Below are positions 36,648 to 57,927 of a stretch of DNA of 64,000 nucleotides, piece after piece (the stretch's first letter is position 1; the number at the start of each line of letters is the position of its first letter). Origin of the DNA: Parcubacteria group bacterium Gr01-1014_8 (GTDB taxonomy: Bacteria; Patescibacteriota; Minisyncoccia; Phycocordibacterales; UBA2100). Below the pieces are notes generated by a model. It had not been told where the DNA came from. It searched no databases and worked only from the letters and a program-made list of their open reading frames with translations. The position numbers and the translations under genes are program-made. The DNA lies in contig VMGC01000001.1 in the NCBI GenBank assembly GCA_007376385.1, positions 320,001 through 384,000 on the forward strand, read 5' to 3'.

Positions 36648-36697
36648 CAGACGACTTATGTAGACATAGAGGAGATGTTATTGCATAGTAGCGCGAT

Positions 36698-37888
36698 ATG
36701 AAAAGGTCCACAGTGCTTTACGCCGTGTCCGCTCTTGTTATTGGAGGTTTTCTTGCGTACTGGTTTGTTCCTCTCGGGCCTGCATATTCTGAAGCAAATA
36801 CCATCGCGGATGGAGCATCAAATTTTAAAGAGCTCGCGGCGCGCTTCGGCGATCTCGCTCGCGAAAAGGGAGGAGCATATGCATTCGAGGTGTTGAAACG
36901 CGCTGAATTGCCGCCGAATACTGACCTGCATTTGTTGGGACATGAGGTCGGAAACATTCTATACGAACAGAAAGGTGTCGATGGTATTGCGGATTGCACG
37001 CAGGATTTTAGAAACGCCTGCTCGCATGCAATTGTTATCGGCGCTTTGAATGAGTTCGGCGGTGAGGCTGCATTACCTCTCATAAGCGATGCGTGCAAAA
37101 AGGCTCCAGGCGGAAGCGGAGCGTACACGATGTGTTATCACGGACTTGGCCATGGCGTGTTCGCGTTCTACAGCTATGACCTTTCAAAAACCGCTGAATT
37201 TTGCAGAAAGACCGGGACTCCCGAATACCACGAACGAGAATATGTTGAATGCGTCGGAGGTTCGGTGATGGAATTGATGGGAGGAGGCGGGCATGATAGG
37301 GAGGCGTGGCTTGCGGCGAGGGAGAAATATCTCGACCCGCATTCACCGCTCTCGCCGTGTATGGACAGCGCTGTGCCGGAAAGAGCGAAAATAATGTGCC
37401 TTACATATCTGACACCTCGTCTGTGGGAATTAGCAGGTATTGATATGGGAAACCCCTCACCTCATATGTTTGCAACTGCGTTCTCGTATTGCGATGCGAT
37501 CCCTCGCTCTCGCCCAGAACTTCGCGGTGCCTGCTACGGAGGGTTTGGCAAAGAATTCTTTCCGCTCGTAGCCTCGCGCGATATTCGCGATGATGTATCG
37601 TATTCAGACAGGCAACTCTCTACCGTCATCGATTGGTGCAGTTTTGCAGGGGATGTCGAAGGAACGTATGCGTGTGTGGGGGATGCGGTTGCGTCCGCAT
37701 TCTGGGGTGGGGAGAAAGATCCGAAAACAGCGTTTAGGCTCTGCGGCGCAGCAGATGGAACGTTGCAAGATGCATGTTTCGAACGACTCGCCGATGAAGT
37801 GACGATGTATATGCGAGGAGCAGAGAAAGATGAGCTATGCGCGCAGATCCCCGCACGTCTCGAGACCAAATGTTCAAAAAGTAGTTAG
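36698..37888 (+). CDS. Exported Cys/His-rich protein, family member P1 (unrecognised family)
   Basis: N-terminal TM anchor. Motifs DCTQDFRNACSHAIVIG, MCYHGLGHGV, ECVGGSVMELMGG and more than 14 Cys. Paralogous to 8 other genes in 37.9-55.2 kb. Confidence 0.65.
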   Translation: MKRSTVLYAVSALVIGGFLAYWFVPLGPAYSEANTIADGASNFKELAARFGDLAREKGGAYAFEVLKRAELPPNTDLHLLGHEVGNILYEQKGVDGIADCTQDFRNACSHAIVIGALNEFGGEAALPLISDACKKAPGGSGAYTMCYHGLGHGVFAFYSYDLSKTAEFCRKTGTPEYHEREYVECVGGSVMELMGGGGHDREAWLAAREKYLDPHSPLSPCMDSAVPERAKIMCLTYLTPRLWELAGIDMGNPSPHMFATAFSYCDAIPRSRPELRGACYGGFGKEFFPLVASRDIRDDVSYSDRQLSTVIDWCSFAGDVEGTYACVGDAVASAFWGGEKDPKTAFRLCGAADGTLQDACFERLADEVTMYMRGAEKDELCAQIPARLETKCSKSS

Positions 37889-37889
37889 T

Positions 37890-38933
37890 ATGCGGTTTCT
37901 GATGTGGATGGGCGGAGGAGTGCTTGCCGCTCTTTTTTCGTTTTTCCTGTTCCATTCATTGTATGCTGGGGGCGATCTATTCGTGCCGCATGAGTACGCA
38001 CCATTCGAAGAACAACGTGCGTATTGGCAACATCTCATCGAAAAAGAAGGTGCCGAAAACGCTCTCACTGCATTTTCTGTCCGAGTCGGATCATTATCTC
38101 TGAATACGCAGCATCAATTGGCTCACTCGTTCGGCGCTGCGCTTTTCCAGGCGGAAGGTATTGGTGGCATTTTCATATGCGATGCGCGATATTCGTTTGG
38201 TTGTTTCCATCAGTTCTTAGGAGATGCGATACAGGCGCTTGGTATCGAGCGTGTTCCGGATCTGAACACACGTTGCTTTGATGCGTCATCCGTAAGTCCC
38301 ATTTCTTGTACGCACGGCATTGGTCACGGGGTCCTCGCCTCGCTTGGGTATGATGATATAGCTCTCCAAAAAGGGCTCGAGATATGCAAAGGTCTGCCGG
38401 GAACGGAGCCCATTGGAGGATGTTATGGAGGCATTTTTATGGAATACAACGTACGCACAATGCTCGCAGAGCAGGCGACGGTACGAGAGTACGAAGGAAA
38501 TGTGTATGCGCCATGCGATTCGCTTGCGGCTGAATTTGTTCAAGGTTGCATATATTGGCAGCCACAATGGTGGCTTGTGACAGTGCTTGATGGGGTCTCT
38601 TCGGAAAAAGCGTATGCGAAAATGGGTTCATATTGCCGAGAATTCGCAAAAACACCGGAGTTATTGCGTGCATGTTTTGAAGGCTTGGGAAATATTGTCG
38701 AAGATGAGGCGGAGTATGAGCCATTGCAGGCGCGGAGGCTTTGTGACGCCGCAGGCGCGGGTACTCTGAGCAGCGTATATTGTCGCTCCGTCGGCGCGAA
38801 TCATTTTGGCATTGATGGCGGGGAAGATCAGGCTGTGTTGGTGTGCGAAGATCTTCAAGGAGACAAGAGAGCATATTGTATGGCGTATGCAAAAAATGAG
38901 ATAGGCCTCGCGCCGGAATTACGTGAATTATGA
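37890..38933 (+). CDS. Exported Cys/His-rich protein, family member P2
   Basis: Start placed at MRFLMWMGGG, right after the P1 stop. Motifs CFHQFLGDA, SCTHGIGHGV and GCYGGIFMEYN. Confidence 0.6.
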   Translation: MRFLMWMGGGVLAALFSFFLFHSLYAGGDLFVPHEYAPFEEQRAYWQHLIEKEGAENALTAFSVRVGSLSLNTQHQLAHSFGAALFQAEGIGGIFICDARYSFGCFHQFLGDAIQALGIERVPDLNTRCFDASSVSPISCTHGIGHGVLASLGYDDIALQKGLEICKGLPGTEPIGGCYGGIFMEYNVRTMLAEQATVREYEGNVYAPCDSLAAEFVQGCIYWQPQWWLVTVLDGVSSEKAYAKMGSYCREFAKTPELLRACFEGLGNIVEDEAEYEPLQARRLCDAAGAGTLSSVYCRSVGANHFGIDGGEDQAVLVCEDLQGDKRAYCMAYAKNEIGLAPELREL

Positions 38934-40063
38934 ACCGTTTATTTCTCGTAGTAATTGTGTTTATAGCGTTCGCTTTTATGGGATGGCAGGTGTGGGGCGA
39001 TGTGGACCCATTTGCTGAGTGTACCGGAGTCCATCGCAACGAATGTCTGGGCGCTGTCCTCAAAGAGATGGCAGATGTGCAGGGGATCGCGGCTGCGTTC
39101 GAGTCATTTACAGAACTTTACGACGAGCCGGATTTCACGAAAGATTGCCATCCAATAGTGCACGAAATGGGAAAAGGCGCATATGAGCGGTACAAACGAG
39201 GAAAACCACTCGAGGCGGTTCATGAACTTTCCTATTGCAGCTACGGTTTTTATCACGGATTTTTGGAAGCCATGGTACCGGATACTGGAGACCCCAAAAA
39301 GGCTCGTGAGTTGTGCGATAAGTTACAAGATGGCGTGACGGACGGCAGATCAGTTATCGGTCCTTGTCTTCATGGTTTTGGTCATGGGGTGACAGACGGC
39401 ACGAGGCCAGAGCGTTGGGGGAGTTTTGAGACCATGTCTGAGCCTTCGCTCGAGATATGTTCGTCTATCGCGCGACGTGATGATGAAAAAATGCTCTGTG
39501 CAGGCGGAGTTTTCAACGCGATCTCTATCATGTCGCTTTACAAGAAAAATGGGCTTGTCATTGATAAGGTGCATCCATACGCTCCGTGCGAGAAGCAAAC
39601 AGATGTGCGTGTCCGTGAGGCTTGCTTTCGGAATTTTCACCCGACAGTTTCTCATATAAATCATGAGCATTTTTTGCTTGCAGCGCACCAGGTTGAGGCA
39701 TTAGAGAAGGATGCGGATGCAATTCCCGCGATGGAGAACCTTGCGATCTATCAGTCAAGGAGGATGACCGAAGAATACACGGACCCATATATCGCTGCCT
39801 TTTGTCATCGAGTCCAGCCGCGGTTGCAGAACATGTGCGTAGAAGGTTTCGCGGTAGGTTTTCTTATCTTTGGCACACCAGGCGAAGAATATGAACGCGC
39901 TCTCACGTTCTGTCAGAATACCGAACTTCGCGGTGAACACGAGGAGCATTGCCTCAGACGAGTCATACAGTCTTCGAAGCAGCAATATTCAAGGGACGTG
40001 TATAAAAAAGTATGCATGAAAGTTCCGAGAGCGTTTCAGTACCTTTGCGAAGAACCCGCGTAA
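38930..40063 (+). CDS. Exported Cys/His-rich protein, family member P3
   Basis: Motifs DCHPIVHEMG, YCSYGFYHGF, PCLHGFGHGV and LCAGGVFNA. ATGA overlap with P2. Confidence 0.65.
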   Translation: MNRLFLVVIVFIAFAFMGWQVWGDVDPFAECTGVHRNECLGAVLKEMADVQGIAAAFESFTELYDEPDFTKDCHPIVHEMGKGAYERYKRGKPLEAVHELSYCSYGFYHGFLEAMVPDTGDPKKARELCDKLQDGVTDGRSVIGPCLHGFGHGVTDGTRPERWGSFETMSEPSLEICSSIARRDDEKMLCAGGVFNAISIMSLYKKNGLVIDKVHPYAPCEKQTDVRVREACFRNFHPTVSHINHEHFLLAAHQVEALEKDADAIPAMENLAIYQSRRMTEEYTDPYIAAFCHRVQPRLQNMCVEGFAVGFLIFGTPGEEYERALTFCQNTELRGEHEEHCLRRVIQSSKQQYSRDVYKKVCMKVPRAFQYLCEEPA

Positions 40064-40127
40064 AGAACCCTGCGACAGAAAGCGTGGGGCGTTCTCGGCG
40101 AGTCCGGTAAAGTACGTTCATTCATTT

Positions 40128-41636
40128 TCATCGGACTTCCAACAACCATGACAGTGCGTTATTCGCGTACGCGTCGCATGCGTCTAGCTCTTCGAATCCA
40201 AGAGCCTTGCAAATGACGTCGTTCTTGAAGCCCGCAAATTCACGCCAGTGTGTCGCACGCATAAAAAGAGCTCCTAGAAGGCAATTTTGTTGGTCGTTCG
40301 ATCCTGGGCCCATCTGACATTTTTCTACTACTTCTGAGTCAGTGAGATTCAGCCATGGGAGAGCGGTGTTGAATCCGATGCCAGTGAAGCACTTATCCCT
40401 GAATCGTGATGGGGCGCGGAGGCATCCCTTGATCGACTCTTCGCTGAAATAACCAGGGCTCCAAACGGTGGATTGATTCAAGTAACAGATCTCAAGCATT
40501 GGATCGTCTCCAGCAAGTTCGAGGGCATCGCACGGAAAATCAGGCCGTGTTTTATCGAGCCATGTTGTCGTATGTCCGCGTACGCCGAATCCAAGGGTGA
40601 CGAATACATTTTCCATGAATGCGCCGTGATAGCACATCTTTTTCCCACGTTCGTACGTGACAAGATCGCGGCACTTTTGCAGCGACAAGGGAAGGTCATA
40701 ATTGTGATACACCATGAGCCCATGGCCGATGACGTGCTCGCAGAAGATGCCTCGCAGCGAGTCAGCATTCTCTTTTAAACACCCCGCCGCATACTTTTTT
40801 ACGGTCTCATCGTCTCCGACATTTCCAAGTGATGATTCGATGACACCGTGGTAAAAACCGAATTGGCATCTTGTGTCTATCATCTGTTCATCGAGTATTG
40901 AGAGGCCGTTCAGCGCGTATGCGATACGGCCTAAAAAGTGTGCCTCCGAATGACACTCTCCCACCGCTACCTGCGAACCTGGATTATCCGGACGCTGTGA
41001 AGGATCCATCGAATCCTTGACCAGTTCATCGAGCATTTTTTCGTATCCGAACACGCGCATCCAATATTCGAGTTCAGCGTCAGTCCTGCTCACCTCTATC
41101 ATATTCAATTTTTCCAACACCGATACTCCAGATCTCGGAAAAAATCTGAAATAGAAATGCATCAGCGACGCATGAAATTTTCGAGCAGGAGATAGCGCCC
41201 CATAACGAGGCAGCTCGGATGGATCTCCGCTCCCCGAATCCTTGACTAGTACCGTACCTGAACGTTCCGGGTCCATGTGGTCATGAAAATTCCACGTTCC
41301 TGCTTGTTTGAATTTAAAGCGGAATGATGCGTCTTGCAGCAGTTCGTGGCAAGAATCGAATCCTTTATACGCGTCAGTGCCGCACTCACGGATATCCGAC
41401 CCGGGATATTGTGTATGCGTGGGATGTACGTCAGATGCAATCCAATGAGGTTCGGTGTCTTCATTCACGAAAAGGACGCTTTCTCCTTGGACTATCTCAA
41501 CCTGCGACGGTTCAAAACCGCTCGCCGTCATGCGAATCGTAGTGTATGTAGTTTCTGCCGAGAGTGTCTGCGGCAGTGCGCAAAGAATTGATAGCAGGAC
41601 GAGAGATGCGTTGGAAGCTGCTGTTTTTTTTGTCAT
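40128..41636 (-). CDS. Exported Cys/His-rich family member P4 with N-terminal His-rich cupredoxin-like domain
   Basis: Signal peptide. N-terminal domain TIRMTASGFEPSQVEIVQGESVLFVNED...WNFHDHMDPERSGTVLV, then the family motifs ECHSEAHFLG, RCQFGFYHGV, FCEHVIGHGL and MCYHGAFMEN. Confidence 0.65.
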   Translation of the reverse strand: MTKKTAASNASLVLLSILCALPQTLSAETTYTTIRMTASGFEPSQVEIVQGESVLFVNEDTEPHWIASDVHPTHTQYPGSDIRECGTDAYKGFDSCHELLQDASFRFKFKQAGTWNFHDHMDPERSGTVLVKDSGSGDPSELPRYGALSPARKFHASLMHFYFRFFPRSGVSVLEKLNMIEVSRTDAELEYWMRVFGYEKMLDELVKDSMDPSQRPDNPGSQVAVGECHSEAHFLGRIAYALNGLSILDEQMIDTRCQFGFYHGVIESSLGNVGDDETVKKYAAGCLKENADSLRGIFCEHVIGHGLMVYHNYDLPLSLQKCRDLVTYERGKKMCYHGAFMENVFVTLGFGVRGHTTTWLDKTRPDFPCDALELAGDDPMLEICYLNQSTVWSPGYFSEESIKGCLRAPSRFRDKCFTGIGFNTALPWLNLTDSEVVEKCQMGPGSNDQQNCLLGALFMRATHWREFAGFKNDVICKALGFEELDACDAYANNALSWLLEVR

Positions 41637-41664
41637 CGAACCCTAGTATAGCGGAAGAAGTTTT

Positions 41665-43245
41665 TCAGGCTACTTCGCGTTTTCTGATGATGAGGAACAC
41701 GATCGAGAGGATGGGAAGTATGAGCACATATTCTCCTAGAAGTGAGTACAGGGTTTTCGTGTCTTTGAGCGGCACTGATGCTGCGAGTATAGAAGGAGCT
41801 GAGTCAGAGCGCATCTCCACTTTTCCGCGGTTTGTGACGATGGAAGATGCCAGCCCGTTTCCTGCGATAGCTATGTAGCGATCATTTTCGACCGCACGTA
41901 CCTTTCCTAGGGAAAGTACGAGGTTGTCTACCAGATGCGATCCATGGAACCACGCCTGTCCGGCTGGATTTACGAATACCCGTGCTCCGCCCTGGGCAAG
42001 TTTCTGGTACAGATTTGGCGAGAGAATATCCGAACAGAAAAGCGCTCCGACTTCTGTTCCGTTGATATGTGCAGGGAACAGTTTTGTTCCTGAAGCAACG
42101 GAACGTTCCCTCATTGTGCTCTGCTCTGCATCAGACACACCAATAAGGCGGAGCAGCATGGCAAAGAGCCAGGGCGTATATTCTCCCTGTGGCACCAAGA
42201 ATATCTTCCGGTATGTTTCAGGCATCAAGGTGCCGTTTTCGTACATACGCATCTGGACGTATCTTTCAGAACCCGTTCTCACCGGACCTGAGTCAATGAA
42301 TGTAACGGCGTGATCGGGAAAAACTAACTTCGCGAATTCAGTCGGGTCTTCGTTACTATGAACGAAAAAATCTGTCGCTTCCGGAAAGACAATGATATCC
42401 GGCGGCTCATTTTCTTTTGCCCATATTCGTATGTATTCTGCGACTTCGCGTGCATGTTTTCGCTTGACCTCTAACGAATACAGCGAGGTGACAGGCATGC
42501 TTGTTGAAACGAGTGCGACACGCACCGATCCAGATTCATTTTGAAAAGTCCAACTCGGAAGAGAATAGGCTCTATCAAGAGCCGCAAGAGTCAACGCTCC
42601 GGAGAGGATAAGTGCGAACACGAGCCCTCGTTTTCTCGCGTTTTCATACTGAAAAATTACGTGATACAGAGAAAAGCCGAGAAAGACCGCAAGAAAGGTC
42701 AGTATGTATATGCCGCCAATGGAAGCGGATCGAAGAAAAGGAGAAAAATTAGTAAGAGAATATCCGAGCATCGTAGGTGAGAAGTGCGGGCCGGAAAATG
42801 AAAGGTCGCGTGCTGTGAGTATGGCAAATCCCCACATTTGCGCGTATTGCAATACTGTCCAAAGAGAAGCGGCAAGCAGTGCGGCATAGAAACCTGAGCG
42901 CTTGGATCGGACAAAGCCAGCCGCAAAGAGTGAGAAAAAGACGGCGAGGACGAGAGTGACCATGAGCCATGAGAACCCTACGAATATGATCCCTTTCCAC
43001 GGAGGAGAACCAGTCCAGTCGAGTGGCAACACGTCCCAGAACCATGCTATGGCAGTACCGCTGTAGGCAAAGCCAAAGAGAAGTCCAAGTATTGACGCAT
43101 CTCGGTATTGTTTCTCTTGCAGGCGGTGCAATACGTGAGCGAAGGGAATGAGTCCGAATACGGATACCAGCCATATGGACGGGAACAGTATTCCCGATGC
43201 AGCGATAACGCCTGAGAATATTGCAAGCAAACCAAAGACTACCAT
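41665..43245 (-). CDS. lnt: Apolipoprotein N-acyltransferase
   Basis: About 7 N-terminal TM helices, a C-terminal CN-hydrolase domain with FPEA (Glu), Lys, and GALFCSDI (catalytic Cys), then a terminal TM helix; 526 aa. Confidence 0.7.
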   Translation of the reverse strand: MVVFGLLAIFSGVIAASGILFPSIWLVSVFGLIPFAHVLHRLQEKQYRDASILGLLFGFAYSGTAIAWFWDVLPLDWTGSPPWKGIIFVGFSWLMVTLVLAVFFSLFAAGFVRSKRSGFYAALLAASLWTVLQYAQMWGFAILTARDLSFSGPHFSPTMLGYSLTNFSPFLRSASIGGIYILTFLAVFLGFSLYHVIFQYENARKRGLVFALILSGALTLAALDRAYSLPSWTFQNESGSVRVALVSTSMPVTSLYSLEVKRKHAREVAEYIRIWAKENEPPDIIVFPEATDFFVHSNEDPTEFAKLVFPDHAVTFIDSGPVRTGSERYVQMRMYENGTLMPETYRKIFLVPQGEYTPWLFAMLLRLIGVSDAEQSTMRERSVASGTKLFPAHINGTEVGALFCSDILSPNLYQKLAQGGARVFVNPAGQAWFHGSHLVDNLVLSLGKVRAVENDRYIAIAGNGLASSIVTNRGKVEMRSDSAPSILAASVPLKDTKTLYSLLGEYVLILPILSIVFLIIRKREVA

Positions 43246-44114
43246 CGTAAAGATCCGCGATAATCAGCGAGTCGGATGGAAAAGACGATATGCAGGATCG
43301 CCCAGATATAAAAGAAGAGCGGAGGGAATACATACGCGAGTACGATAGAACCCCACGCGGTATATGCAAATAGCGCATACAGAGCAAAAACAATGGCATG
43401 GATCGCAAGCATATCCTTCACATATGCACTTTGACGGTCAGGCTTGCTTCCGAATCGAAAATAAAAGTGCACGTACCAGCATACGTAATGCAGCAGAATG
43501 ACCGAGCCGGTGAGTTTTGTCGATGAAACTTGAATGTCAAAAAACCACAACGCAAATAGTCCTGCGGTGATAAGCAAAAGATACGCACTCAGTGCATCAG
43601 GACGGTATGTTCCGATCGCAATGCTCGCGACATAGGGAACTAGCAACACGATCGCGAGCATGACAAGAGACGAAGAGAATGTGGCTCCCAACATATATCT
43701 TGAGATAAGAGCTGTGAAAAGAAGCACTGGCGGCAACTGTTCAAGAGCGCGAGAGAGAGAACGTTCCTTCCCGAAGAGCGTCACTTCATCCTGAAAATGA
43801 TGTATGAAAAACACTACAGAAGCGACGAGAGCAAACCATGCTACTTGATCCGTTAGAATGGCAAGTGTGAACAGTGCAGTTGTAAGAGTAACGAATGCAG
43901 CGACCCACGTCATCGTCATCTTACCGGCTTTCCATTGGTAGTAGTATGCCCCGAGAAAATGACCTTGGCCGAAGATACTGAATGCGAGTCCGACCTGCAG
44001 GGGAGAAAGGTAGTAAACCGCAAGCGCGACAATGGCGAGGCCAAGCGATTTTTGTATGACCAATTCACGTGTCATAGTAGAAGTATGGTAGCACATACTG
44101 GCATATGAAATCAC
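43239..44114 (-). CDS. Polytopic membrane protein of unknown function (~8 TM)
   Basis: 291-aa hydrophobic ORF overlapping the lnt start by 7 nt. No motif recognised. Confidence 0.45.
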   Translation of the reverse strand: MISYASMCYHTSTMTRELVIQKSLGLAIVALAVYYLSPLQVGLAFSIFGQGHFLGAYYYQWKAGKMTMTWVAAFVTLTTALFTLAILTDQVAWFALVASVVFFIHHFQDEVTLFGKERSLSRALEQLPPVLLFTALISRYMLGATFSSSLVMLAIVLLVPYVASIAIGTYRPDALSAYLLLITAGLFALWFFDIQVSSTKLTGSVILLHYVCWYVHFYFRFGSKPDRQSAYVKDMLAIHAIVFALYALFAYTAWGSIVLAYVFPPLFFYIWAILHIVFSIRLADYRGSLRW

Positions 44115-45304
44115 ATCTTATTTTGATCGTGGGAGGCATAGGGCTATTTTTGCTTGGTATTTTTTTCATAGTCTCTATGCCAGTAGGTGCAATCGTCGTC
44201 GAAGACGTCGTTGAAGATCTAGGGGAATGTCTCCACGAGAATCAGGCAGAATTAGAGAGTTTTCCATGCGTGAGGGAGAAAATACAGTCGCTTCTTCTCG
44301 AATTGCCTGCGCATGAGATCATGCGTGCGGTTGAAGCGTCGTTTCCATATCAGTGTCATGCTGTTGGTCATATTCTCGGGCAAGAAACGTACAAGATGCT
44401 CGGCTCAGTGGAAAGCGCCTTCGGAGCATGCTCTCCTGCCTCGTGCGTTCACGCGTGCACACACGGAGTTGTCGGGGAAGTCTTTCTCTCTACACCCGGG
44501 ATAGGAGGATTGCCAGAAGAATGGAGGCATCCGAACATCGACTTGATACGCTCGGAAGGCTCTTTGCTTTGCAGGGATAGAACGACATGTCATGCGGTCG
44601 GTCATGTACTTTTTTTACTTTTTTTTGAGGACCTCTCAGGTGCGCTTTCTATGTGTGATGAAATCGCAGGAGATGAGGCATTTACATGTCACAGCGGCAT
44701 ATTTATGGAGAATGGTGGCGGGACATTTGCGCGCACGATCCCTGGCTTAGATGTTGAGCGGGAAGAGTATCGTGACCCCACTGATCTTCTTTCTCCCTGC
44801 AATACGGTCGCTGACCGCTACAAAAAGGCATGCTTTAGATTCTTGTATATAAATCAATATGACTATTTTAAGGATCACGGCATTACTGATCCGCATACGA
44901 TCTTCAACACGCAGACGGATGCCTGCGGTATTGTCACGGATCGTTTGCAGCGCAGAGCATGTTTCAGAAGCGTGGGCTGGTCTCTCCAGGGGATGCGCCG
45001 ACCGCTTCTTTCCGCGCACGTGCTCTGCAACTCGCTGACTGTCATAGAGGATCGCAGTGCATGTCTTTTTGGCGTGAGCGATTCATTCACGGATCAGGGT
45101 ATGAGCATCTCGGAAACCGGAGGGGCGTGCAGAGCAGTAAACAATGAGCAAGGCAAACGCGCATGTTATGGAGGAATTTTCATGGCACTTTCAGACAGAG
45201 AACCTGGTCTTCTCCCAAGCGTGTGCGATGGCGCTTCTGACAGCGCATGTCAAATGTCGTTGCAGGAATTTTTAGCGAATCCAGACAGTCGTGATTCTAT
45301 TTAG
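44105..45304 (+). CDS. Exported Cys/His-rich protein, family member P5
   Basis: TM anchor. Motifs YQCHAVGHILG, SCVHACTHGVVGE, TCHAVGHVLF and TCHSGIFMENGG. Confidence 0.6.
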   Translation: MKSHLILIVGGIGLFLLGIFFIVSMPVGAIVVEDVVEDLGECLHENQAELESFPCVREKIQSLLLELPAHEIMRAVEASFPYQCHAVGHILGQETYKMLGSVESAFGACSPASCVHACTHGVVGEVFLSTPGIGGLPEEWRHPNIDLIRSEGSLLCRDRTTCHAVGHVLFLLFFEDLSGALSMCDEIAGDEAFTCHSGIFMENGGGTFARTIPGLDVEREEYRDPTDLLSPCNTVADRYKKACFRFLYINQYDYFKDHGITDPHTIFNTQTDACGIVTDRLQRRACFRSVGWSLQGMRRPLLSAHVLCNSLTVIEDRSACLFGVSDSFTDQGMSISETGGACRAVNNEQGKRACYGGIFMALSDREPGLLPSVCDGASDSACQMSLQEFLANPDSRDSI

Positions 45305-45330
45305 ACACTATTTACTCAATTGTTGGCACA

Positions 45331-46446: not shown

Positions 46447-46460
46447 CTGGAGGGTCCCTT

Positions 46461-46901
46461 TTAGGGTCGTGGGAACGGCTCACCGATAAGGAGGTAGGAG
46501 AGCACCAATTGTCCTTGTGGGTTGATATATACAGAACCGTATCCATGTGTACCCGGGACGACGTCGTCAATCGTAGCCGGGGTTGTCGAACTAGTGCCAA
46601 CGACCGCGCCGTTCTCGATTATCACATCCCTGCGTTCTACGAAGAAGTCAGGGGCGAGGGAATACAAAGTCGGGACATCCAGGTTAACGCTGGGTATCCG
46701 CGTAATCCCTACCAATTTCCGATGCTCGAGGTCTATAGAGTACACGGTGAGAAATTCCGAGAATGCTAAAAAGCCGAAGATCTTCTCTGGCGCTGTCATG
46801 GCGCTAAGACGTTCGCGATAAACATAGAGTTCTTCGCCGGCGATGATGGTCGCGGATAGGACAAGGGATAGACAGCCGAGAATGATTGGAAGTCTGTTCA
46901 T
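46461..46901 (-). CDS. Small secreted protein of unknown function
   Basis: Signal peptide MNRLPIILGCLSLVLSATIIA plus about 125 aa. ATGA overlap with the upstream gene. Confidence 0.4.
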   Translation of the reverse strand: MNRLPIILGCLSLVLSATIIAGEELYVYRERLSAMTAPEKIFGFLAFSEFLTVYSIDLEHRKLVGITRIPSVNLDVPTLYSLAPDFFVERRDVIIENGAVVGTSSTTPATIDDVVPGTHGYGSVYINPQGQLVLSYLLIGEPFPRP

Positions 46902-47320
46902 GATCCTATACGTTTGGTGATGGTTATGTCCGTAGCGCGGAGCGTCCCCATTGTCTGCAGGTCTCTATTCACGCGTACGGTTGCTCCGGGCGGTAAGGGG
47001 ATCATTTTTCCTATTATGAATCTCTTCTCTTCCATGATACCCGCTCTGAACACATATTCTACAGATGACCACCTCGTGGCGTCATCGTATACGAATTCTA
47101 CTGTAACTCGCGGTTCTGCAATCGAGTAGCTACTCAGAGTTGAAACACGAAGCACGTGATCGGCGAGACGGTGATCAGTTACGATCCCATAATATGTACG
47201 CTCAGCATGCATTCCGTCTCGTGGTAGTGTAGGCATGAAAACATTAACGCCGAAAGACAATACGTATCCGCAGGCTCCCCCAAGAATTATCGGCAGCGCG
47301 TATCTTAGGGCGATATGCAT
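46898..47320 (-). CDS. Small signal-anchored protein of unknown function
   Basis: Start set at MHIALRYALPIILGG (47320). The longer tracked ORF (to 47515) would read through an intergenic repeat copy. Confidence 0.4.
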   Translation of the reverse strand: MHIALRYALPIILGGACGYVLSFGVNVFMPTLPRDGMHAERTYYGIVTDHRLADHVLRVSTLSSYSIAEPRVTVEFVYDDATRWSSVEYVFRAGIMEEKRFIIGKMIPLPPGATVRVNRDLQTMGTLRATDITITKRIGS

Positions 47321-47342
47321 CGAGTAATTATAGCTCGTAGTA

Positions 47343-47450
47343 AAGGTTCCTCGGAGCAAGCTCCGAGGTATTATGGAGCTCGCTTCGCTCGCGCAGTCTC
47401 GCAGCAGAGCTGCGAGATATTGAACCTGTGTTTGCTCCTCGGCTCGGAAA
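47343..47450 (-). repeat. Intergenic repeat family, L-part copy C (inverted, with 46-nt internal insertion)
   Basis: The reverse complement gives atttccgagccgaggagcaaacacaggttcaata[46-nt insert]cctcggagcttgctccgaggaaccttt, matching 52281-52334. Contains the perfect hairpin cctcggagc-ttg-ctccgagg. Confidence 0.6.
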
Positions 47451-47571
47451 TGCAAAAGTGCTCTTTTGCGTTTCTCTCGCAACGCTCGCAAATAAAGCGC
47501 ATGAGGGCGACCCATTTATGCGTATCGTTCTTCGCATCGTATTTGCTTGACATAGGCGTGCAGAATATGAT

Positions 47572-49182
47572 GTGCACAACATGCAACGCATCAGTGCTTT
47601 ATTGCTGGTACTTGTACTCGGCTCTTATGCAATGTATTACGCCATTCCGGAGGACGTATCCAACGTATCATGTGATAACTGCAATCTTGTGATCATCACG
47701 TTGGATAGCGTGAGGTTGGATCACATGGCTTTGTATGGTTATGAACGCTCGACAACCCCGAACATCGACAACTTCGGACAGGGCGCGTTGGTATTCACTA
47801 ATTATTTTTCGACGAGTTATTTGACGCCTGTTAGTGCATTTTCAATGCTCACTGGCAGATATCCTTTCAGCAATGGCGTCGTCAGTTTTTATTCATATTT
47901 GCGCGACGATGTTACTTCACTTGCGGAGACCCTACAGGCGGAGGGGTATCGTGCTGCGGCGTTCGGTTCTTCTCCAGAGTACGAACTCTTTCCTTCACTC
48001 AAAGAAAGCGGGATGCGAGGTTTCGATGTGTATAAAACTTTTACGTCTGATGATCCAGATATATTGCCCAGTCGTTCGCAGGTTCCAGTAGAGGAAGCAA
48101 TTGCCTGGGCCGAAGATTCTTCGCAGCCGTTTTTTTTATGGATGCCGATCGGCGCTGCGCACTGGCCATATGATCCATTTGAAGAACGAACTTTTACCGA
48201 TGCAGGTTACGACGGGTTTCTGCGGAATTTACCTTCCGGTTTTAAGACCTATAGTCAGATATATAAGGGGACATATTATCCGATACGTGAGGGGACAATG
48301 CCGAATGTCCGCCAGTCTCTGCATCTGCCGGAATATTCTTCCCGACATACCGAAGAGGTCGATCTGCTCCTTGAGTGGGGACCATCTGCAACTACCTCAT
48401 TGAATGCGGAGGACCTTGAATACGTTCGAGGTCGCTACGACGACGGACTGCTATTCATGGATCGCATCGTCGGCGACATAATTGCAACTCTCGAAGAAAA
48501 ACATTTGGATCGGGATACCATCATAATTATTGAATCGGTGCATGGTGAAGAATTGGGCGAGCGCGGTGTCATTGGGCACTATGATATTGATGAAGCAACG
48601 ATACGAAGTCCGTTGATGATCAAGGTGCCTGGAGCGCGTTCGCGCCGCATCGACGCTCTTATCTCTGGAGTCGACATCTATCCGACCGCGCTAAGTATGT
48701 TGGGAATCGATATGGCTATGCGCGATGGGATAGACTTTGTACCATTTCTTTCCGGAGTGACCTCAACAGAACCTCGGCAAGAAGTATTCCTTACGCGCAC
48801 GCCACTTTTCGAGACGCTCTATACGGTCGAAGGGGATAGCATGACATCTGCTCGTTACGAGCGATTGCGCTCTGAGGATGCGCGCATGCATTATCACGAT
48901 AGCGCGATCCGTACGAACGAATGGAAGCTCATTCATCGCACTAGCAGAGTGGCGTTGTCACGTTATTCATGGTGGCAGTATCTCACTGGGAATATTGAAA
49001 ATATCCCAGAATACGAGCTGTATTTTCTTCTTGACGATCCTCTTGAGACAACGAATCTGTATAACGAGCGTCCTGACATTGCGACGCCATTGCAGGAGCG
49101 CTTGAGCGCGTGGGAGAATACGCAGGCGAGTGATCGCAATCTATTAAAAATGCAAGATACGATACGGCAGGAATACTTTTAA
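47572..49182 (+). CDS. Sulfatase-family (alkaline-phosphatase superfamily) enzyme with Thr at nucleophile position; membrane-anchored
   Basis: N-terminal TM. LVIITLDSVRLDH (metal-binding Asp), SYLTPVSAFSMLTGRYP in place of C/S-x-P-x-R, FFLWMPIGAAHWPY and ESVHGEELGE. Confidence 0.65.
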   Translation: MHNMQRISALLLVLVLGSYAMYYAIPEDVSNVSCDNCNLVIITLDSVRLDHMALYGYERSTTPNIDNFGQGALVFTNYFSTSYLTPVSAFSMLTGRYPFSNGVVSFYSYLRDDVTSLAETLQAEGYRAAAFGSSPEYELFPSLKESGMRGFDVYKTFTSDDPDILPSRSQVPVEEAIAWAEDSSQPFFLWMPIGAAHWPYDPFEERTFTDAGYDGFLRNLPSGFKTYSQIYKGTYYPIREGTMPNVRQSLHLPEYSSRHTEEVDLLLEWGPSATTSLNAEDLEYVRGRYDDGLLFMDRIVGDIIATLEEKHLDRDTIIIIESVHGEELGERGVIGHYDIDEATIRSPLMIKVPGARSRRIDALISGVDIYPTALSMLGIDMAMRDGIDFVPFLSGVTSTEPRQEVFLTRTPLFETLYTVEGDSMTSARYERLRSEDARMHYHDSAIRTNEWKLIHRTSRVALSRYSWWQYLTGNIENIPEYELYFLLDDPLETTNLYNERPDIATPLQERLSAWENTQASDRNLLKMQDTIRQEYF

Positions 49183-49190
49183 ATGATCTT

Positions 49191-50612
49191 ATGATGTTGC
49201 TCTTTCCATCTAAAAAACATGCATTTGTTGTGGTGGGGTGTATCGTGATGCTCGCGGTCGCGACATTTTTCATACTTCGAGGAGGAGACGATCTCTCGTG
49301 CAGAGAGTGTAATGTAATTATCATTGGCGTCGACACACTCCGGGCGGACGCGTTGCATAGTCTTGGATATGAGCGTGAGACCACTCCGACCCTTGATGCG
49401 CTCGCCAATAAAGGTGTCATTTTCTCACAGGCAATCTCTGCATCGAGCTGGACGGTGCCATCATTCATGTCGATCTTTACGGGTATGTATCCCTCGGCGC
49501 ACAAGGTGACAAATAAATTCGTAAAATTTTCAAAAGACGCGAAGATACTCACAAATCTTAAAGATATTGATCCTGAGATCGAAACGTTCGCGATGATCAT
49601 GAAGAACGCAGGCTACGCAACCGGAGGCTTTACGGGGGATGCAGGAGTCTCAGCACAGTTCGGATACGGACAGGGGTATGATATATATACCGACGAAAAA
49701 ACCTTCGGCGGATTTGAGAATAGCGAGCAACATGCCTTGAAATGGCTGGATACTCTGGACTCCAAACAAAAGTTCTTTATGTTCTTCCATGGTTATGATC
49801 TGCATGGGCAACATGATCTAGATGACGATTCGTCCAGGGAATTTGTTCCTGAATATTCAGGGACGTACAAAGGCACGAAAGAAGAAGAGGCAATTATCCG
49901 TGAACAGCAACTGGAATGGGGAGGATTGTCACTCACGCCGGGGGACGTAGCATTCTGGCGGGGCATATATGACAGCAAGATCAAAGACGCAGATACGCGG
50001 CTTGCCAGTTTTATCGCGGAACTCGAAAAGAGGGGTCTTCTCAAAAATACGGTCATAGTTTTAGTGTCTGACCACGGAGAAGAGTTTTATGAACATAAAG
50101 GCATTGATCACGGACACTCTTTATATGATGAACAGGTTCATGTGCCTTTGATACTCATCGTTCCGGGTATGACCGGCGGAAGAAGGGTCGATGCGCAAGT
50201 AAGTACAATGGATATCGCTCCTTCAATTCTCGATATCCTCAACATCGCACCGAGCGCAGCTTTCGAAGAACAAACCGCTTTGAGACGCAGTCTTGTGCCG
50301 TATATTCTTGGATTGGAATTTCGCGGGTACGATATTTTTACCGAGACGGATTATCGCAACTCACGGCATCTTCGTTCAGTGCGTACCGCAGACGGGTGGA
50401 AGTACATACTCGATCTCGAAAGTAAACACGAAGAGCTTTATGACCTTCGCAATGATCCAGGTGAGTTAAAGGATTTAGCATCGAGCGAGGTAAAAAAGCG
50501 TGACGAGACTAGAAGAAGACTTCTCACTCACATGCGGGATGAACTTCATCAGACTTTGGATCAAGAAATACGCACTGATTGTCTCCCGGTATATGTTGGA
50601 GAGTGCGAGTAG
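49191..50612 (+). CDS. Sulfatase-family (alkaline-phosphatase superfamily) enzyme, second copy, Thr at nucleophile position
   Basis: N-terminal TM. IIIGVDTLRAD, SSWTVPSFMSIFTGMYP, VSDHGEEFYEHKGIDHGHSLYDEQVHVPLILIVPG. Confidence 0.65.
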   Translation: MMLLFPSKKHAFVVVGCIVMLAVATFFILRGGDDLSCRECNVIIIGVDTLRADALHSLGYERETTPTLDALANKGVIFSQAISASSWTVPSFMSIFTGMYPSAHKVTNKFVKFSKDAKILTNLKDIDPEIETFAMIMKNAGYATGGFTGDAGVSAQFGYGQGYDIYTDEKTFGGFENSEQHALKWLDTLDSKQKFFMFFHGYDLHGQHDLDDDSSREFVPEYSGTYKGTKEEEAIIREQQLEWGGLSLTPGDVAFWRGIYDSKIKDADTRLASFIAELEKRGLLKNTVIVLVSDHGEEFYEHKGIDHGHSLYDEQVHVPLILIVPGMTGGRRVDAQVSTMDIAPSILDILNIAPSAAFEEQTALRRSLVPYILGLEFRGYDIFTETDYRNSRHLRSVRTADGWKYILDLESKHEELYDLRNDPGELKDLASSEVKKRDETRRRLLTHMRDELHQTLDQEIRTDCLPVYVGECE

Positions 50613-50665
50613 TACTATCGATAGGGAAAATATATCTATTATCTGACAGATGATACTATGCGTTC

Positions 50666-51058
50666 ATGCGAGGGACGCAGGTTTTCGATAATATGTCGCT
50701 GACATATATTCTTGTTTCCGTACTCCTCTTTGTATTGGTAGTAACTTCTGTTCTGTATCTAAAGAAAGGGGATGTCCAGGATGTAAGGAAGCAAATTATT
50801 CTTGAGCAACAAGGATTTCAGCCGAGTGAGCTCACTGTCAAAAAAGGAAGCACGGTAACATTCACTACGACCGCCGCGCGACAGTTCTGGCCGGCTTCAA
50901 ATTTGCATCCAAGTCATGACATCTATCCTGATTTTGACGCGAAGCGGCCTCTTGAGAGCGATGAAGTATGGAGCTTCACTTTCAATACAGCAGGCGATTG
51001 GCCATTTCATGATCACATCCGATCATACTATGTTGGTGTCGTACACGTAATCGAGTAA
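50666..51058 (+). CDS. Membrane-anchored standalone cupredoxin-like His-rich domain protein
   Basis: TM anchor, then QGFQPSELTVKKGSTVTFTTT...WPASNLHPSHDIYPDFD...WSFTFNTAGDWPFHDHIRSYYVGVVHV. Same domain as the N-termini of P4 and P8. Confidence 0.55.
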   Translation: MRGTQVFDNMSLTYILVSVLLFVLVVTSVLYLKKGDVQDVRKQIILEQQGFQPSELTVKKGSTVTFTTTAARQFWPASNLHPSHDIYPDFDAKRPLESDEVWSFTFNTAGDWPFHDHIRSYYVGVVHVIE

Positions 51059-51072
51059 AGTGGAAGCTGTAT

Positions 51073-52272: not shown

Positions 52273-52280
52273 AGAGCCTC

Positions 52281-52467
52281 TTTTATTTCCGAGCCGAGGA
52301 GCAAACACAGGTTCAATACCTCGGAGCTTGCTCCGAGGAACCTTTATCTGTCGAGGATAGCAAGCGAAATGCGAAAGTGCAGGTTTCGCATTTCCGAGCG
52401 ACACAGACAGCAAAGGTTCAAAGCCCCGCGGCTTGCCTGCCTGTGCGATGCACGCAGACAGGCCGCG
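52281..52467 (+). repeat. Intergenic repeat element, most complete copy B (L-part 52281-52334 + R 52335-52467)
   Basis: R is identical to 16111-16243 apart from 1 nt. The L-part matches the inverted copy at 47343-47450. R overlaps the last 41 codons of the minus-strand gene P8. Confidence 0.75.
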
Positions 52468-53894
52468 GAATTTGGGACGCATAACCCTTCAACAAGCTGC
52501 GGGTCGGATGCCTTTGCAAATACGAGCACGATCTTTTGGCACTGCAGAAGCTCTTGCTCTAACGTAAATTGGCCGCAAAATGCAATGGAGTGCCGTGCGC
52601 CCTTTTCAGGTGTCTCACGATGGAAGAAACCCGACACAACGCCGAGAATGCATGCTGCCCATTCTTCTTGATCCATGAGTTGACTGCACTCTTTTGCCAG
52701 ATGCGTGAATTCTGGCTCACCGACGCGGCGCCGTACCTCGTCATTTATAAGCGCTTGCATTGATTCGAGCCGTGCTGCCTTTACGGGTATCTGTCTTAGT
52801 AACGAGAAACCGTCTTCAAGTGAGTATTTGTTGTGGCGGATGTATCCGACACCGATCTCTATGGCGCATCCCGTCCAATATTCTGGCACTGCCCTGCAAA
52901 CACCGAGGGGATCGTCATGCCTGAACGAGATCCCGTATTCACCGGAACCAAGAGCTATTGAGAGCGAATTGAATACGCCGGAAGCACACCGTGTTCTTTC
53001 CCACTCTGGTTGAATTGCGCTCTCGCATGAGAGGAGTGCGCTTTTCGCCATTTTGTATTCGTCACCCCACTTGGTTGAATCAATAGAGTCGAACAGTGCA
53101 TGTCCGATGCCGTGATAACACGCGCCGACAGCATTGTGCCGTGATGTTGGCGTTCCTAGATGTGTGCTATCTCGCATCTTTTCGCAGTAGGCAACGGTTT
53201 GAGCGACTCCCTCATCTCCTGTGTCGCGAAGGGCTTGTTCCATGAATCCATGATAGAAACCGAAATTGCAATACGTGGTTTCTATCCTGTCAGCGACAGC
53301 GCCTCCGGCTTTGTATAGTTGATATGTCTGTATGCCGATATAGTGCGAAACGTCGTGACAATTTCTCTGAAATAACGGATCCTCAGCATTCCACTTTTCG
53401 AAAGCGTCGAACACTGCGTCGAGTCCTCCTTTCTTAAGAATACGGTCTATTTCACCGTCCCAGCAGTAGGCTTTTATTGTGTCGGTCGAGGAGTCGAGAC
53501 ATGCTTCGACACTTTCTCCTTCATATCCTAGGACGATAATTCTTCCCTGCACCATTGGGTGCATATGATCGTGGAATGGCCAGACCCCTGCACGCGAAAA
53601 AGTAAATTCCCATGGATCACCGGGCTGAATCGCGTGTGTTGGGTCGAAATCCGAATAGCGTCCATGGGACGGATGAGAATCCGACGCAGGCCACGAATCT
53701 GATATCGATGAATTAACGAAGATGACCGTGTCACCTTTGTTGATAGTAAGCCTCTCAGGCGAGAATCCGGTATTGGTTCTTGTGATGGTGTATGTCTGCG
53801 GAGAAAGATATGCGTATGCCATTCCTGCAAGAACCGCGACAGCAAGAAAAATAACTGCCAAAAGCTTAACAGAAAGAGAAAAATGCGCGCGCAT
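52344..53894 (-). CDS. Exported Cys/His-rich family member P8 with N-terminal cupredoxin-like domain; C-terminal 41 aa encoded by repeat element R
   Basis: N-terminal domain TYTITRTNTGFSPERLTINKGDTVIFVNSS...WPASDSHPSHGRYSDFD...VWPFHDHMHPMVQGRIIV. Family motifs NCHDVSHYIG, YCNFGFYHGF, ACYHGIGHAL and RCASGVFNS. The stop codon lies inside R copy B. Confidence 0.65.
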   Translation of the reverse strand: MRAHFSLSVKLLAVIFLAVAVLAGMAYAYLSPQTYTITRTNTGFSPERLTINKGDTVIFVNSSISDSWPASDSHPSHGRYSDFDPTHAIQPGDPWEFTFSRAGVWPFHDHMHPMVQGRIIVLGYEGESVEACLDSSTDTIKAYCWDGEIDRILKKGGLDAVFDAFEKWNAEDPLFQRNCHDVSHYIGIQTYQLYKAGGAVADRIETTYCNFGFYHGFMEQALRDTGDEGVAQTVAYCEKMRDSTHLGTPTSRHNAVGACYHGIGHALFDSIDSTKWGDEYKMAKSALLSCESAIQPEWERTRCASGVFNSLSIALGSGEYGISFRHDDPLGVCRAVPEYWTGCAIEIGVGYIRHNKYSLEDGFSLLRQIPVKAARLESMQALINDEVRRRVGEPEFTHLAKECSQLMDQEEWAACILGVVSGFFHRETPEKGARHSIAFCGQFTLEQELLQCQKIVLVFAKASDPQLVEGLCVPNSAACLRASHRQASRGALNLCCLCRSEMRNLHFRISLAILDR

Positions 53895-53982
53895 ATGCCC
53901 CTAGTATACGATGCCCGTTCAGGTTGTTTTTTAACGACTCTTGGGGCAGAATGGCATCCTCGTGGGGTAGCGCCCTTGCTTT

Positions 53983-55158
53983 ATGAAGTTCAGACTGAGT
54001 GTCTATATATGGCCTATTATCGCTGCGGCAGCGTTGCTCGGGGGCGCCTTTTTCTACGTTAATTTTTCCTCGCGTGCTGAAGCTGCAGCCATAGTCGAAA
54101 CATGTAAAAAGGAGCCAGACAACATGTTCTGTTACGAACGCGAAGTGCCGAAGCTGTATTCTTCTTACTCGATCCCGGAACTATTTGAATTCATCCGCGA
54201 GATCCGTCGTCTCGATCCGTCGTATCAGTTTTGCCATGTACTTGCGCATAAGCTCGGCGAAGAGGCCGTTGCAGAAGACCCGTCGCGCTGGCTGGATATG
54301 ATCCCTCTGAACCCGCGTGATGGAATGTGCAGCAACGGATTCATTCATGGCGTCATCGTAGGCAGGTTTCGCAATGACACGCTCGACAAGGAAACGCTCG
54401 AGAAAACGATACCTGATCTTGCGAGGGCGTGCGAACCGCGGGCGAACTGGTCTCCCAGTTCGTTGGACCAAGCGATTTGCTATCACGGCATGGGCCACCT
54501 TTTTATGTTCATAACGAACGCTGACATGCGGCTCTCGCTGGATACGTGCGCACGCATATCGCGAAGTGCAACTGGGGATTTTATGCGCGTCTGCCGAGAA
54601 GGCGTATTCATGCAAACATATCAGCCGCTTGAGCCGGACGATTTTGCTCTGCTAGAATTACTTCCTGAAAAACCGACGAAAGAAAATTACCGGCGCTTAT
54701 GCGCAGCGTACGCGAACGATCCAGAAGAAGGAGCGTGTCTTCGGGAAGCGTGGCCGTTCTTCCGCACCGACATTCTTAAAGGAACTGGTGCCATCAGTTT
54801 TTGCTCAGGACAACCAACCAAGGAGGAGGAAGAGATGTGCTACGAATCGGCTTCAACTATCATAGGAAGACAGCTTCTCGGGAACGATGAAAAAGCAAGT
54901 GCGGCGTGTGATGCTCTTCCTCAGAAATGGCAGAGCATATGCTACATTGCGGCTGCTCAAGCACTGCTGGAAGAAGATAGGGCGACGGGGAAGGCTGCAA
55001 TTTCTCTCTGCGAGAGAGGAAAGAATGGTGTTGCTGATACCTGCTTAAAGACACTTGCGATGCGAGCAAACTGGATATTTTCAAGCGGTGCAGCGGAAAA
55101 GGACGCATTTTGCGAGGCATTGCCGCGATTCAAGGAGGAGTGCGATCGGCGGCGCTAA
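53983..55158 (+). CDS. Exported Cys/His-rich protein, family member P9
   Basis: Motifs FCHVLAHKLG, MCSNGFIHGV, ICYHGMGHLF and VCREGVFMQT. Confidence 0.65.
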   Translation: MKFRLSVYIWPIIAAAALLGGAFFYVNFSSRAEAAAIVETCKKEPDNMFCYEREVPKLYSSYSIPELFEFIREIRRLDPSYQFCHVLAHKLGEEAVAEDPSRWLDMIPLNPRDGMCSNGFIHGVIVGRFRNDTLDKETLEKTIPDLARACEPRANWSPSSLDQAICYHGMGHLFMFITNADMRLSLDTCARISRSATGDFMRVCREGVFMQTYQPLEPDDFALLELLPEKPTKENYRRLCAAYANDPEEGACLREAWPFFRTDILKGTGAISFCSGQPTKEEEEMCYESASTIIGRQLLGNDEKASAACDALPQKWQSICYIAAAQALLEEDRATGKAAISLCERGKNGVADTCLKTLAMRANWIFSSGAAEKDAFCEALPRFKEECDRRR

Positions 55159-55183
55159 ATTCCGCGTATAGTATAATCTACCC

Positions 55184-56233: not shown

Positions 56234-56283
56234 CCGATACTTATCCCCTGTAATAATATTTCTTCCGTGGTATTCTCATCGCC

Positions 56284-56370
56284 ATGTCAGTAAAAATTGC
56301 CATTAATGGATTTAGAAGGACCCCAAAGGAAAGCGTAGCTTCCTACGGGGCGGGACTCATTTCAAATTAA
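56284..56370 (+). other. 28-codon mini-ORF mimicking the GAPDH N-terminus (MSVKIAINGFRRT...), 20 nt upstream of gap
   Basis: aaaattgccattaatggatttagaagga compared with the gap start aaaatagcgattaatggttttggaaggatagg. Contains the hairpin cgtag-cttc-ctacg. Confidence 0.2.
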
Positions 56371-56390
56371 CGAATTACAAATTTTAAAAT

Positions 56391-57398: not shown

Positions 57399-57399
57399 C

Positions 57400-57891: not shown

Positions 57892-57927
57892 CCTCGTGAG
57901 AAAAACACATGAACGTCGGCGCAACAT

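Follow-up and report, generated by a model that had tools for sequence, protein, structure and literature searches.

A large unannotated family of predicted extracytoplasmic, disulfide-rich alpha-solenoids encoded in arrays with a cysteine-less cupredoxin-like domain in Patescibacteria

Several described protein groups each resemble one part of the gene array reported here, which comprises nine paralogous genes (P1 to P9) in a 64,000-nucleotide stretch (the window) of contig VMGC01000001.1 from Parcubacteria group bacterium Gr01-1014_8 (assembly GCA_007376385.1). The nearest in architecture are the EfeO and FtrB-type proteins of Fe(II) oxidation-coupled iron uptake, which combine a Cupredoxin_1 domain with an all-helical metal-binding domain. 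Two of the nine proteins, predicted to be extracytoplasmic as well, likewise have a Cupredoxin_1 domain at the N terminus, but their helical domain is unrelated to M75/imelysin and lacks the HxxE metal motif, and no EfeU/FTR1 permease was found among the Pfam-scanned proteins of the locus or the 10 recurrent-neighbor clusters scanned. The Helicobacter cysteine-rich proteins (Hcp, Sel1-like) are secreted alpha/alpha repeat proteins with disulfide-linked hairpins, as we propose for the family described here. However, the Cys spacing of the two groups is unlike, the repeats of the new family are longer and irregular, and no Sel1 (PF08238) or TPR profile matched the nine paralogs, or 109 diverse family members at an E value of ≤1 among the families listed (25 of the 65 matched). 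To our knowledge, Hcp structures contain no invariant His cluster and have no cupredoxin partner.

HEAT/ARM proteins and designed helical repeats match weakly (template modeling [TM] score of ~0.2) and have no sequence relationship to the nine proteins, and neither profiles nor superposition place the two groups together; HEAT/ARM and designed repeat proteins are cytoplasmic, disulfide-free, and metal-free. In type-1 copper cupredoxins (plastocyanin, amicyanin, and the Nitrosopumilus "purple" cupredoxin), a Cys thiolate is a metal ligand, whereas the cupredoxin-like domain of the array has an Asp between two invariant His residues (HDH) and an extra invariant HPxH. The solenoids, this Asp-for-Cys cupredoxin-like domain, and a small immunoglobulin-like (Ig-like) protein with an N-terminal His that often accompanies them may have no described counterpart.

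Nine paralogs and the family to which they belong

A first-pass annotation of the window had proposed nine paralogous genes for exported Cys- and His-rich proteins, and open reading frame (ORF) listing and translation located every one of them. P1 (positions 36698 to 37888, + strand; 396 residues, 16 Cys) is the founding and most conserved member. It is followed by P2 (37890 to 38933, +), the second gene of a core order conserved in related genomes, which encodes 347 residues when counted from 37890 and has an ambiguous start (37830, 37890, or 37902), and by P3 (38930 to 40063, +; 377 residues, 16 Cys). The same strand carries P5 (44105 to 45304; 399 residues, 20 Cys), P6 (45331 to 46446; 371 residues, 14 Cys, and 19 His), P7 (51073 to 52272; 399 residues, 16 Cys), and P9 (53983 to 55158; 391 residues, 18 Cys), which is usually last in the core order. 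P4 (40128 to 41636) and P8 (52344 to 53894) lie on the - strand, and in both an N-terminal Cys-less cupredoxin-like domain (about nucleotides 41238 to 41561 and 53523 to 53804, respectively) precedes the solenoid core; the C-terminal ~44 residues of P8 are aberrant in this assembly. P1 is 100% identical to G01um10148_341 of the source organism, and P8 corresponds to _355. A hydrophobic segment is present at the N terminus of each of the nine proteins, which are 347 to 516 residues long, in agreement with the proposed signal peptide or membrane anchor.

The nine proteins had also been said to share four motifs. These are collinear in all nine, and they align when the full sequences are compared, but the Cys of motif 1 is missing in P1, P2, and P6 and that of motif 2 is displaced in P1, P2, and P5; the commonest form of all four motifs is found in P7. 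A MAFFT alignment of the nine paralogs contains 16 invariant columns (H78, H82, G85, H110, C133, C146, H148, G151, H152, C169, C185, G188, C234, C314, C349, and C360 in P1 numbering). Pairwise BLASTP connects all nine proteins, with a best E value of 1e-32 and identities of 22 to 29%, and separates two subgroups, P3/P7/P8 and P1/P2. The nine genes are therefore true paralogs, and their paralogy is ancient and beyond chance. The total number of Cys residues per paralog is 14 to 20, with odd counts only in P4, in which one Cys lies inside the signal peptide, and in P8, which has the aberrant tail.

We found that the paralogs belong to a much larger group of proteins. An exhaustive HMMER search of 1.84 billion representative sequences, made with a family profile built without the cupredoxin columns, returned 7,227 clusters (50% identity) at an E value of ≤1e-3 and 2,335 at ≤1e-30. 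A word-indexed search with a nine-sequence profile returned more than 970 matches, none of which carried a precomputed Pfam domain, and the matches with names are each a "hypothetical protein" of Kaiserbacteria, Uhrbacteria, Parcubacteria, or Minisyncoccia. The first-pass annotation could assign the proteins to no named domain, and this held up, as the core has no match in Pfam, NCBIfam, PHROGs, or the sequences of the PDB, and no profile library placed it in a well-characterized family. When the core domain of the 109 diverse members was compared with Pfam at an E value of ≤1, there was no match among the families listed (25 of 65 matched), and the best E value of a profile search of PDB sequences was 0.23, which is noise. 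No account of the family came up in our searches of the literature.

For comparison of gene neighborhoods we used 79 related loci, which were recovered from GTDB species representatives with P1-ortholog patterns, so that this sample is anchored on P1. All 79 are labeled Patescibacteria or carry automatic placeholder labels. These searches indicate that the solenoid family is very large, belongs to Patescibacteria, and has never been annotated. One 846-residue member (L086:10001-12541; GCA_035291025.1, HLD81251.1) is encoded in a metagenome-assembled genome labeled only "archaeon," for which the neighboring genes gave no decision; it could mean that the family reaches DPANN archaea or that the bin is mislabeled.

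Predicted fold, paired cysteines, and conserved histidines

The AlphaFold2 model of P1, built from 83 sequences, is all-alpha with ~21 helices and has a predicted local distance difference test score (pLDDT) of 95.8 and a predicted TM score of 0.90. A Foldseek search of the PDB with this model found nothing at an E value of ≤1e-3, and the only matches were ARM/HEAT/importin-like solenoids with TM scores of ~0.2. The model predicts that each module is an alpha-solenoid of ~8 helix-turn-helix repeats. In the 109-member alignment, hhalign matched the N-terminal part of the module (P7 residues 126 to 215) to the C-terminal part (P7 residues 300 to 376) with a probability of 96.5% and an E value of 9e-10, which argues that a helical-hairpin unit was duplicated internally to give the domain.

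Three other assignments were rejected. An LanC-like or alpha-alpha toroid enzyme, suggested by GxxG and CHG-like motifs, agrees neither with the fold nor with the LANC_like profile. The metzincin motif HExxHxxG does not apply, as its Glu and third His are lacking and the helix is unbroken. The copper storage proteins (Csp) were set aside because the Cys residues of the family form C-x(10-14)-C pairs at the ends of helices and do not line helix faces, and because no PDB sequence or fold matched.

Successive C-x(10-14)-C pairs begin about every 35 to 50 residues, and in the P1 model the first Cys of a pair closes one helix and the second opens the next, on either side of a hairpin turn. The number of Cys residues is even in 510 of 544 non-redundant members (94%), with a mode of 16, and variable Cys columns are gained or lost in pairs (phi of 0.8 to 0.97). 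From the even counts, the paired columns, and the placement at hairpin turns, we infer ~8 hairpin-stapling disulfides per module, and these data favor the proposal that the domains are extracytoplasmic and rich in disulfides. For the most N-terminal Cys residues (C36, C49, C85, and C119 in P7), co-occurrence gave an ambiguous connectivity. In keeping with such disulfides, an MdbA-like thiol-disulfide oxidoreductase is widespread in bacteria of the candidate phyla radiation (CPR), where its gene is often found beside VKOR (bioRxiv 10.1101/335083).

Across 109 representatives with ~23% identity, the invariant columns are H86, H90, G93, H125, C163, H165, G168, H169, C198, C212, G215, C242, C254, and C350 (P7 numbering). 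Five of these are His, arranged as HxxxH on one helix, a single His on the next, and HxxxH two helices further on, each with a flanking Gly, and they sit on three consecutive long helices in the N-terminal half of the module. All five are present together in 505 of the 544 members (93%), and the rare exceptions frequently lose several at once. This invariance makes the His-based site that had been proposed the obvious reading of the sequences, and the five residues probably form a metal or cofactor center. No acid or base residue other than His was found to be conserved family-wide. We are highly confident that the family is real, large, and unannotated and that its members are extracytoplasmic alpha-solenoids, rich in disulfides, in which a penta-His constellation is conserved.

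Some family members consist of 2 to 7 tandem modules behind a single signal peptide, without internal hydrophobic segments. The secreted proteins P0121 (3,580 residues), P0122, P0127, and P0134 are of this type; P0121 ends in GH3 and LRV/HEAT domains and P0127 in FG-GAP repeats. That such proteins are read-through artefacts is ruled out by the position of their sole hydrophobic segment, which is N-terminal.

The cupredoxin-like partner and candidate functions

Three cupredoxin-like domains had been predicted in the locus, and we located them in P4, P8, and X7. The N-terminal domains of P4 and P8 match Cupredoxin_1 (PF13473) with E values of 2.5e-6 and 1.2e-7, respectively. X7 (50666 to 51058, +; G01um10148_353), which ends 15 nucleotides upstream of P7, is a stand-alone, membrane-anchored protein that contains no Cys (WPASN-HPSH ... 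FHDH); its AlphaFold2 model has a pLDDT of 81.5, with values below 50 for the HPSH loop in the apo model. All three domains have the cupredoxin beta-sandwich fold and lack the Cys thiolate ligand. When aligned to amicyanin with HMMER, the Asp of the invariant HDH stands at the position of the copper-ligand Cys, and the sequences vary at the His and Met positions further downstream. Copper, if bound, would be held by His and Asp, so a blue site is impossible. The consensus over 155 domains is FWPAS..HPTH..YPEFDP...W.YHDHL.P...G.I.V.

The association of this domain with the solenoids is general. Of the copies that we found, 111 are fused and 48 stand alone. Among 109 representatives, 45 carry the domain as a fusion, and of the 54 loci for which at least 9 kb is available, counting from the first member, 48 have it either fused to a solenoid or next to one. 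In P0134, two His-type cupredoxins lie C-terminal to two solenoid modules. On these grounds we consider, with high confidence, that the solenoids are functionally coupled to the Cys-less cupredoxin-like domain.

A further family, which we call c0, was seen in 31 of the 79 loci. Its members are ~170 to 190 residues long, with a signal peptide that ends in ...A|H, an invariant His at the mature N terminus, and a C-terminal transmembrane helix (for example, L015:14822-15352, L052:17716-18255, and L074:18244-18561). In 11 loci, the c0 gene lies no more than 60 nucleotides downstream of the stand-alone cupredoxin gene. Profile searches with c0 gave only weak Ig-like hits and no other PDB or Pfam relative, and none to the CopC or YcnI families by sequence. 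It is c0, and not the solenoids, that bears comparison with the histidine-brace copper proteins (CopC, YcnI, PmoB, and the lytic polysaccharide monooxygenases), as a predicted extracytoplasmic beta-sandwich (Ig-like) with a His-first mature chain. YcnI is tethered by a C-terminal transmembrane helix (bioRxiv 10.1101/2021.06.11.448128), as c0 appears to be. By this analogy, c0 is a candidate histidine-brace protein and may be a further hint of copper chemistry.

The reading we favor, while putting it a little short of an even chance, is that the His set forms a transition-metal center, most likely for copper, and that the solenoids and the cupredoxin-like domain cooperate outside the cytoplasm. 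The modules would be held at the membrane by the N-terminal anchor or released by way of a signal peptide, their HxxxH/H/HxxxH center would hold the metal, and at the cell surface they would act with the HPxH...HDH domain, whether fused or encoded alongside, to capture or relay metal or to carry out a redox step that depends on it. Because the paralogs keep a common metal core and differ on their surfaces, they would probably serve different partners or substrates.

Several observations weigh against this reading. As judged from the alignments, the cupredoxin-like domain has no canonical copper site. From the helix registers alone, H110 is possibly 15 to 20 Å from H78 and H82, and the five His residues might make up a pair of neighboring sites and not a single one. 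Among the window proteins and recurrent neighbors scanned with Pfam, none was a metal transporter or chaperone (CopA, CopZ, or FTR1), and the 64-kb window contains no c0 homolog. In addition, tandem modules fused to GH3 or FG-GAP domains fit binding modules better, and solenoids are in general commoner as binding scaffolds than as catalysts.

These last points bear on an alternative that we regard as possible, if doubtful, in which the modules have no catalytic role and serve at the surface as scaffolds or binding modules, for envelope architecture or for attachment to a host or polymer. The disulfides would then provide robustness, the His/Gly core would be structural, perhaps around a structural metal, and the partners would be diverse. 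The tandem proteins, with one signal peptide ahead of as many as 7 modules and with GH3 plus LRV/HEAT or FG-GAP fusions, are the main argument for it. It also agrees with the nearest PDB matches, which are designed helical repeats and ARM/HEAT proteins, that is, binding scaffolds; with the family-wide conservation of only the core Cys, His, and Gly residues, while surfaces vary between orthogroups; and with the nature of the recurrent neighbors, which are surface proteins (X8 and the U0-U2 family, in 30 and 24 loci, respectively, as well as giant proteins in those loci that were inspected; see below). However, the retention of five His residues in 93% of members, across paralogs of ~20% identity, would be unusual for a purely structural core, and a scaffold gives no reason for a His-rich cupredoxin-like domain to be so steadily fused to the modules or encoded beside them. 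The orthologs of P1, with 42 to 65% identity and 21 conserved polar positions, also look more like an enzyme or a complex subunit than like a fast-evolving adhesin.

Arrays, neighboring genes, and assembly of the locus

The first-pass annotation had taken so many divergent paralogs in one locus of a small genome as a sign of an important surface or periplasmic function. The cluster is not peculiar to this genome, and arrays of 3 to 10 are usual in related Patescibacteria. In a hidden Markov model search of ORFs, the 79 loci contained 1 to 10 solenoid members each, with a median of 5 where at least 9 kb was available, and at least 3 members were present in 51 of the 54 loci with at least 9 kb. 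By best-hit classification, the core order P1-P2-...-P9 is conserved and the extra members vary, and a P1 ortholog opens the array in most related loci. The complete Kaiserbacteria genome CP066682 has P1- and P9-type genes only, followed by the Ig-like protein and GAPDH in the same order as in the window, and another related locus has P1-P2-P9. Sequence classification thus indicates that the paralogs are ancient orthogroups, with a core of P1, P2, and P9 and variable extras, and not a local expansion.

Conservation within an orthogroup goes well beyond that of the family. Among 152 P1 orthologs, 74 positions are kept at ≥90%, and these include the 21 polar ones, while only 16 positions are kept family-wide; the P1 group is thus conserved much as housekeeping proteins are. 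The invariant polar residues of the P1 group, from a 74-sequence alignment in P1 numbering, include D76, R105, N106, S109, Y143, E192, Y211, D295, and R297. That each orthogroup retains its own polar residue set, as the P1 group does, together with the invariant His/Gly constellation and the one GH3 fusion, would suit a reading of the modules as enzymes (hydrolases, lyases, or oxidases) acting on envelope or host polymers, with a catalytic or metal-catalytic His cluster and paralog-specific substrates. The window locus also includes genes for envelope-modifying lnt and Thr-type sulfatase-fold proteins. We judge this reading improbable. Pfam at an E value of ≤1 matched the core of none of the 109 members among the families listed, no acid or base residue but His is conserved family-wide, and lnt and the sulfatase-fold genes are not conserved neighbors of the arrays.

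These and the other genes inside the locus are as follows. X1 (41665 to 43245, -) is lnt (apolipoprotein N-acyltransferase), as had been predicted; it scores 143.6 bits against TIGR00546, for which the cut-off is 132.9, and contains the LNT_N and CN_hydrolase Pfam domains. X2 (43239 to 44114, -), between lnt and P5, is a polytopic His-rich membrane protein without a family match, and has His-rich motifs within or beside its hydrophobic segments (FGQGHF, FFIHHFQDE, and LLHYVCWYVHFYF). X3 (46461 to 46901, -) and X4 (46898 to 47515, -) are small proteins with a hydrophobic N-terminal or internal segment and no family match. X5 (47572 to 49182, +) and X6 (49191 to 50612, +) are membrane-anchored proteins with the sulfatase fold of the alkaline-phosphatase superfamily, matching PF00884 with E values of 3.5e-42 and 6.2e-46, respectively. 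The T-V-P-S-F of X6 lines up with the 4upi and 4uph motif in such a way that Thr occupies the nucleophile position and Arg is replaced by Phe; X5 has T-P-V-S, read by eye from the sequence only. Neither has the C/S-x-P-x-R formylglycine motif of S1 sulfatases, and both agree with the Thr-type assignment made earlier. In the whole 64 kb, no match attained the gathering threshold of its Rfam family; tRNAs, rRNAs, and riboswitches were thus not detected.

The proposal that the locus works as a functional system stood for the cupredoxin-like association, which recurs, but not for the remaining genes: lnt and the sulfatase-fold genes were rejected as system components, each recurring in only 5 of the 79 loci, and X2, X3, and X4 are not recurrent. 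These genes are local passengers and not conserved parts of a system.

Other genes do recur beside the arrays, among them that for the stand-alone cupredoxin. X8 (55184 to 56233, +) is an Ig-like surface protein, which in the loci checked lies downstream of the array and is followed by GAPDH. U0, U1, and U2 (34041 to 36647, +) are tandem paralogs that share a ~150-residue C-terminal domain (…GSGTFVIDHPLDP.N.LLYHSFVESP…WQVTGIRHD); U1 has a Gly-rich insert, the family has no annotation, and it lies upstream of the array both in the window and in related locus L003 (L003:7575-9361). A second small neighbor family, in 21 loci, has an N-terminal transmembrane helix and a short cupredoxin-like domain with two conserved Cys residues and no His-type site (for example, L039:9711-10184 and L046:9312-9845). 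In 11 loci, unannotated proteins of 540 to 560 residues are encoded in tandem pairs on the opposite strand beside the array (for example, L005:8646-11884, -, and L003:12811-16200, -). A giant ORF of the window (20598 to 32753, +; 4,051 residues) has no Pfam match, contains internal DNA repeats of families D2 to D9, and has a G+C content of ~0.55 compared to 0.49 nearby; giant ORFs are also found upstream of arrays in the related loci L001 and L003.

The 3' end of P8 differs between assemblies. In the window, the last ~44 codons of P8 are read from one copy (copy b; 52343 to 52477) of a 135-bp, hairpin-rich repeat, which appears to take the place of the true 3' end of the gene. The other copy (copy a; 16109 to 16243) is a direct repeat with one mismatch, and a segment of 36 kb lies between the two. 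In an independent assembly of 258 kb (ENA ERZ27284378), window positions 7972 to 16243 are joined through a single repeat copy and 223 bp absent from the window to window positions 52478 to 64000 (junction at L085:8138-8495). There, P8 is 490 residues long and ends in LCGKIDAQEHIPEC... with a normal terminal Cys pair. The repeat of that assembly carries the single-nucleotide polymorphism of copy b, a sign that the two copies may have recombined. A simple viable deletion is doubtful, however, because gatB lies within the 36 kb that is missing there. The difference could be a deletion, a rearrangement, or a chimera.

This junction, at 52477/52478, is the one point in favor of an assembly artefact, or of compositional chance similarity, in place of a real family. 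We consider that explanation refuted and its probability negligible. Besides the significant pairwise BLASTP matches and the 16 invariant columns, there are thousands of homologs and a high-confidence fold, the gene order is matched in independent genomes, and window positions 36050 to 47370 are reproduced at 100% in an independent Logan contig. Synteny with relatives also supports the window order P1...P9-X8-GAPDH.

The related loci hold 3 to 10 paralogs within ~10 to 20 kb, and the complete genome of one relative is only 0.86 Mb. Patescibacteria (CPR) account for a large share of bacterial diversity, and about half of their small proteomes is unannotated. The solenoid family is among the larger blind spots at the surface of these bacteria, across which symbionts obtain nearly everything, and it deserves, at least, a database entry. 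Its confidently predicted fold, penta-His constellation, and recurrent Cys-less cupredoxin partner give these "hypothetical proteins" a metalloprotein hypothesis that can be tested directly. A broader and speculative version, which we would hold less probable than not by a good measure, is that the solenoids, the HPxH/HDH cupredoxin, and often the N-terminal-His Ig-like protein make up a system found only in Patescibacteria, or perhaps in DPANN archaea as well, that serves as an extracellular relay or redox machinery for copper or another metal, of a kind not yet known and on which the symbionts depend. In this version, the core subunits P1, P2, and P9 may form a hetero-oligomer. If the metal hypothesis is true, the family would provide bioinorganic chemistry with a metal-binding fold not seen before and a naturally occurring cupredoxin site that has no thiolate, and it would represent a new envelope system of CPR bacteria.

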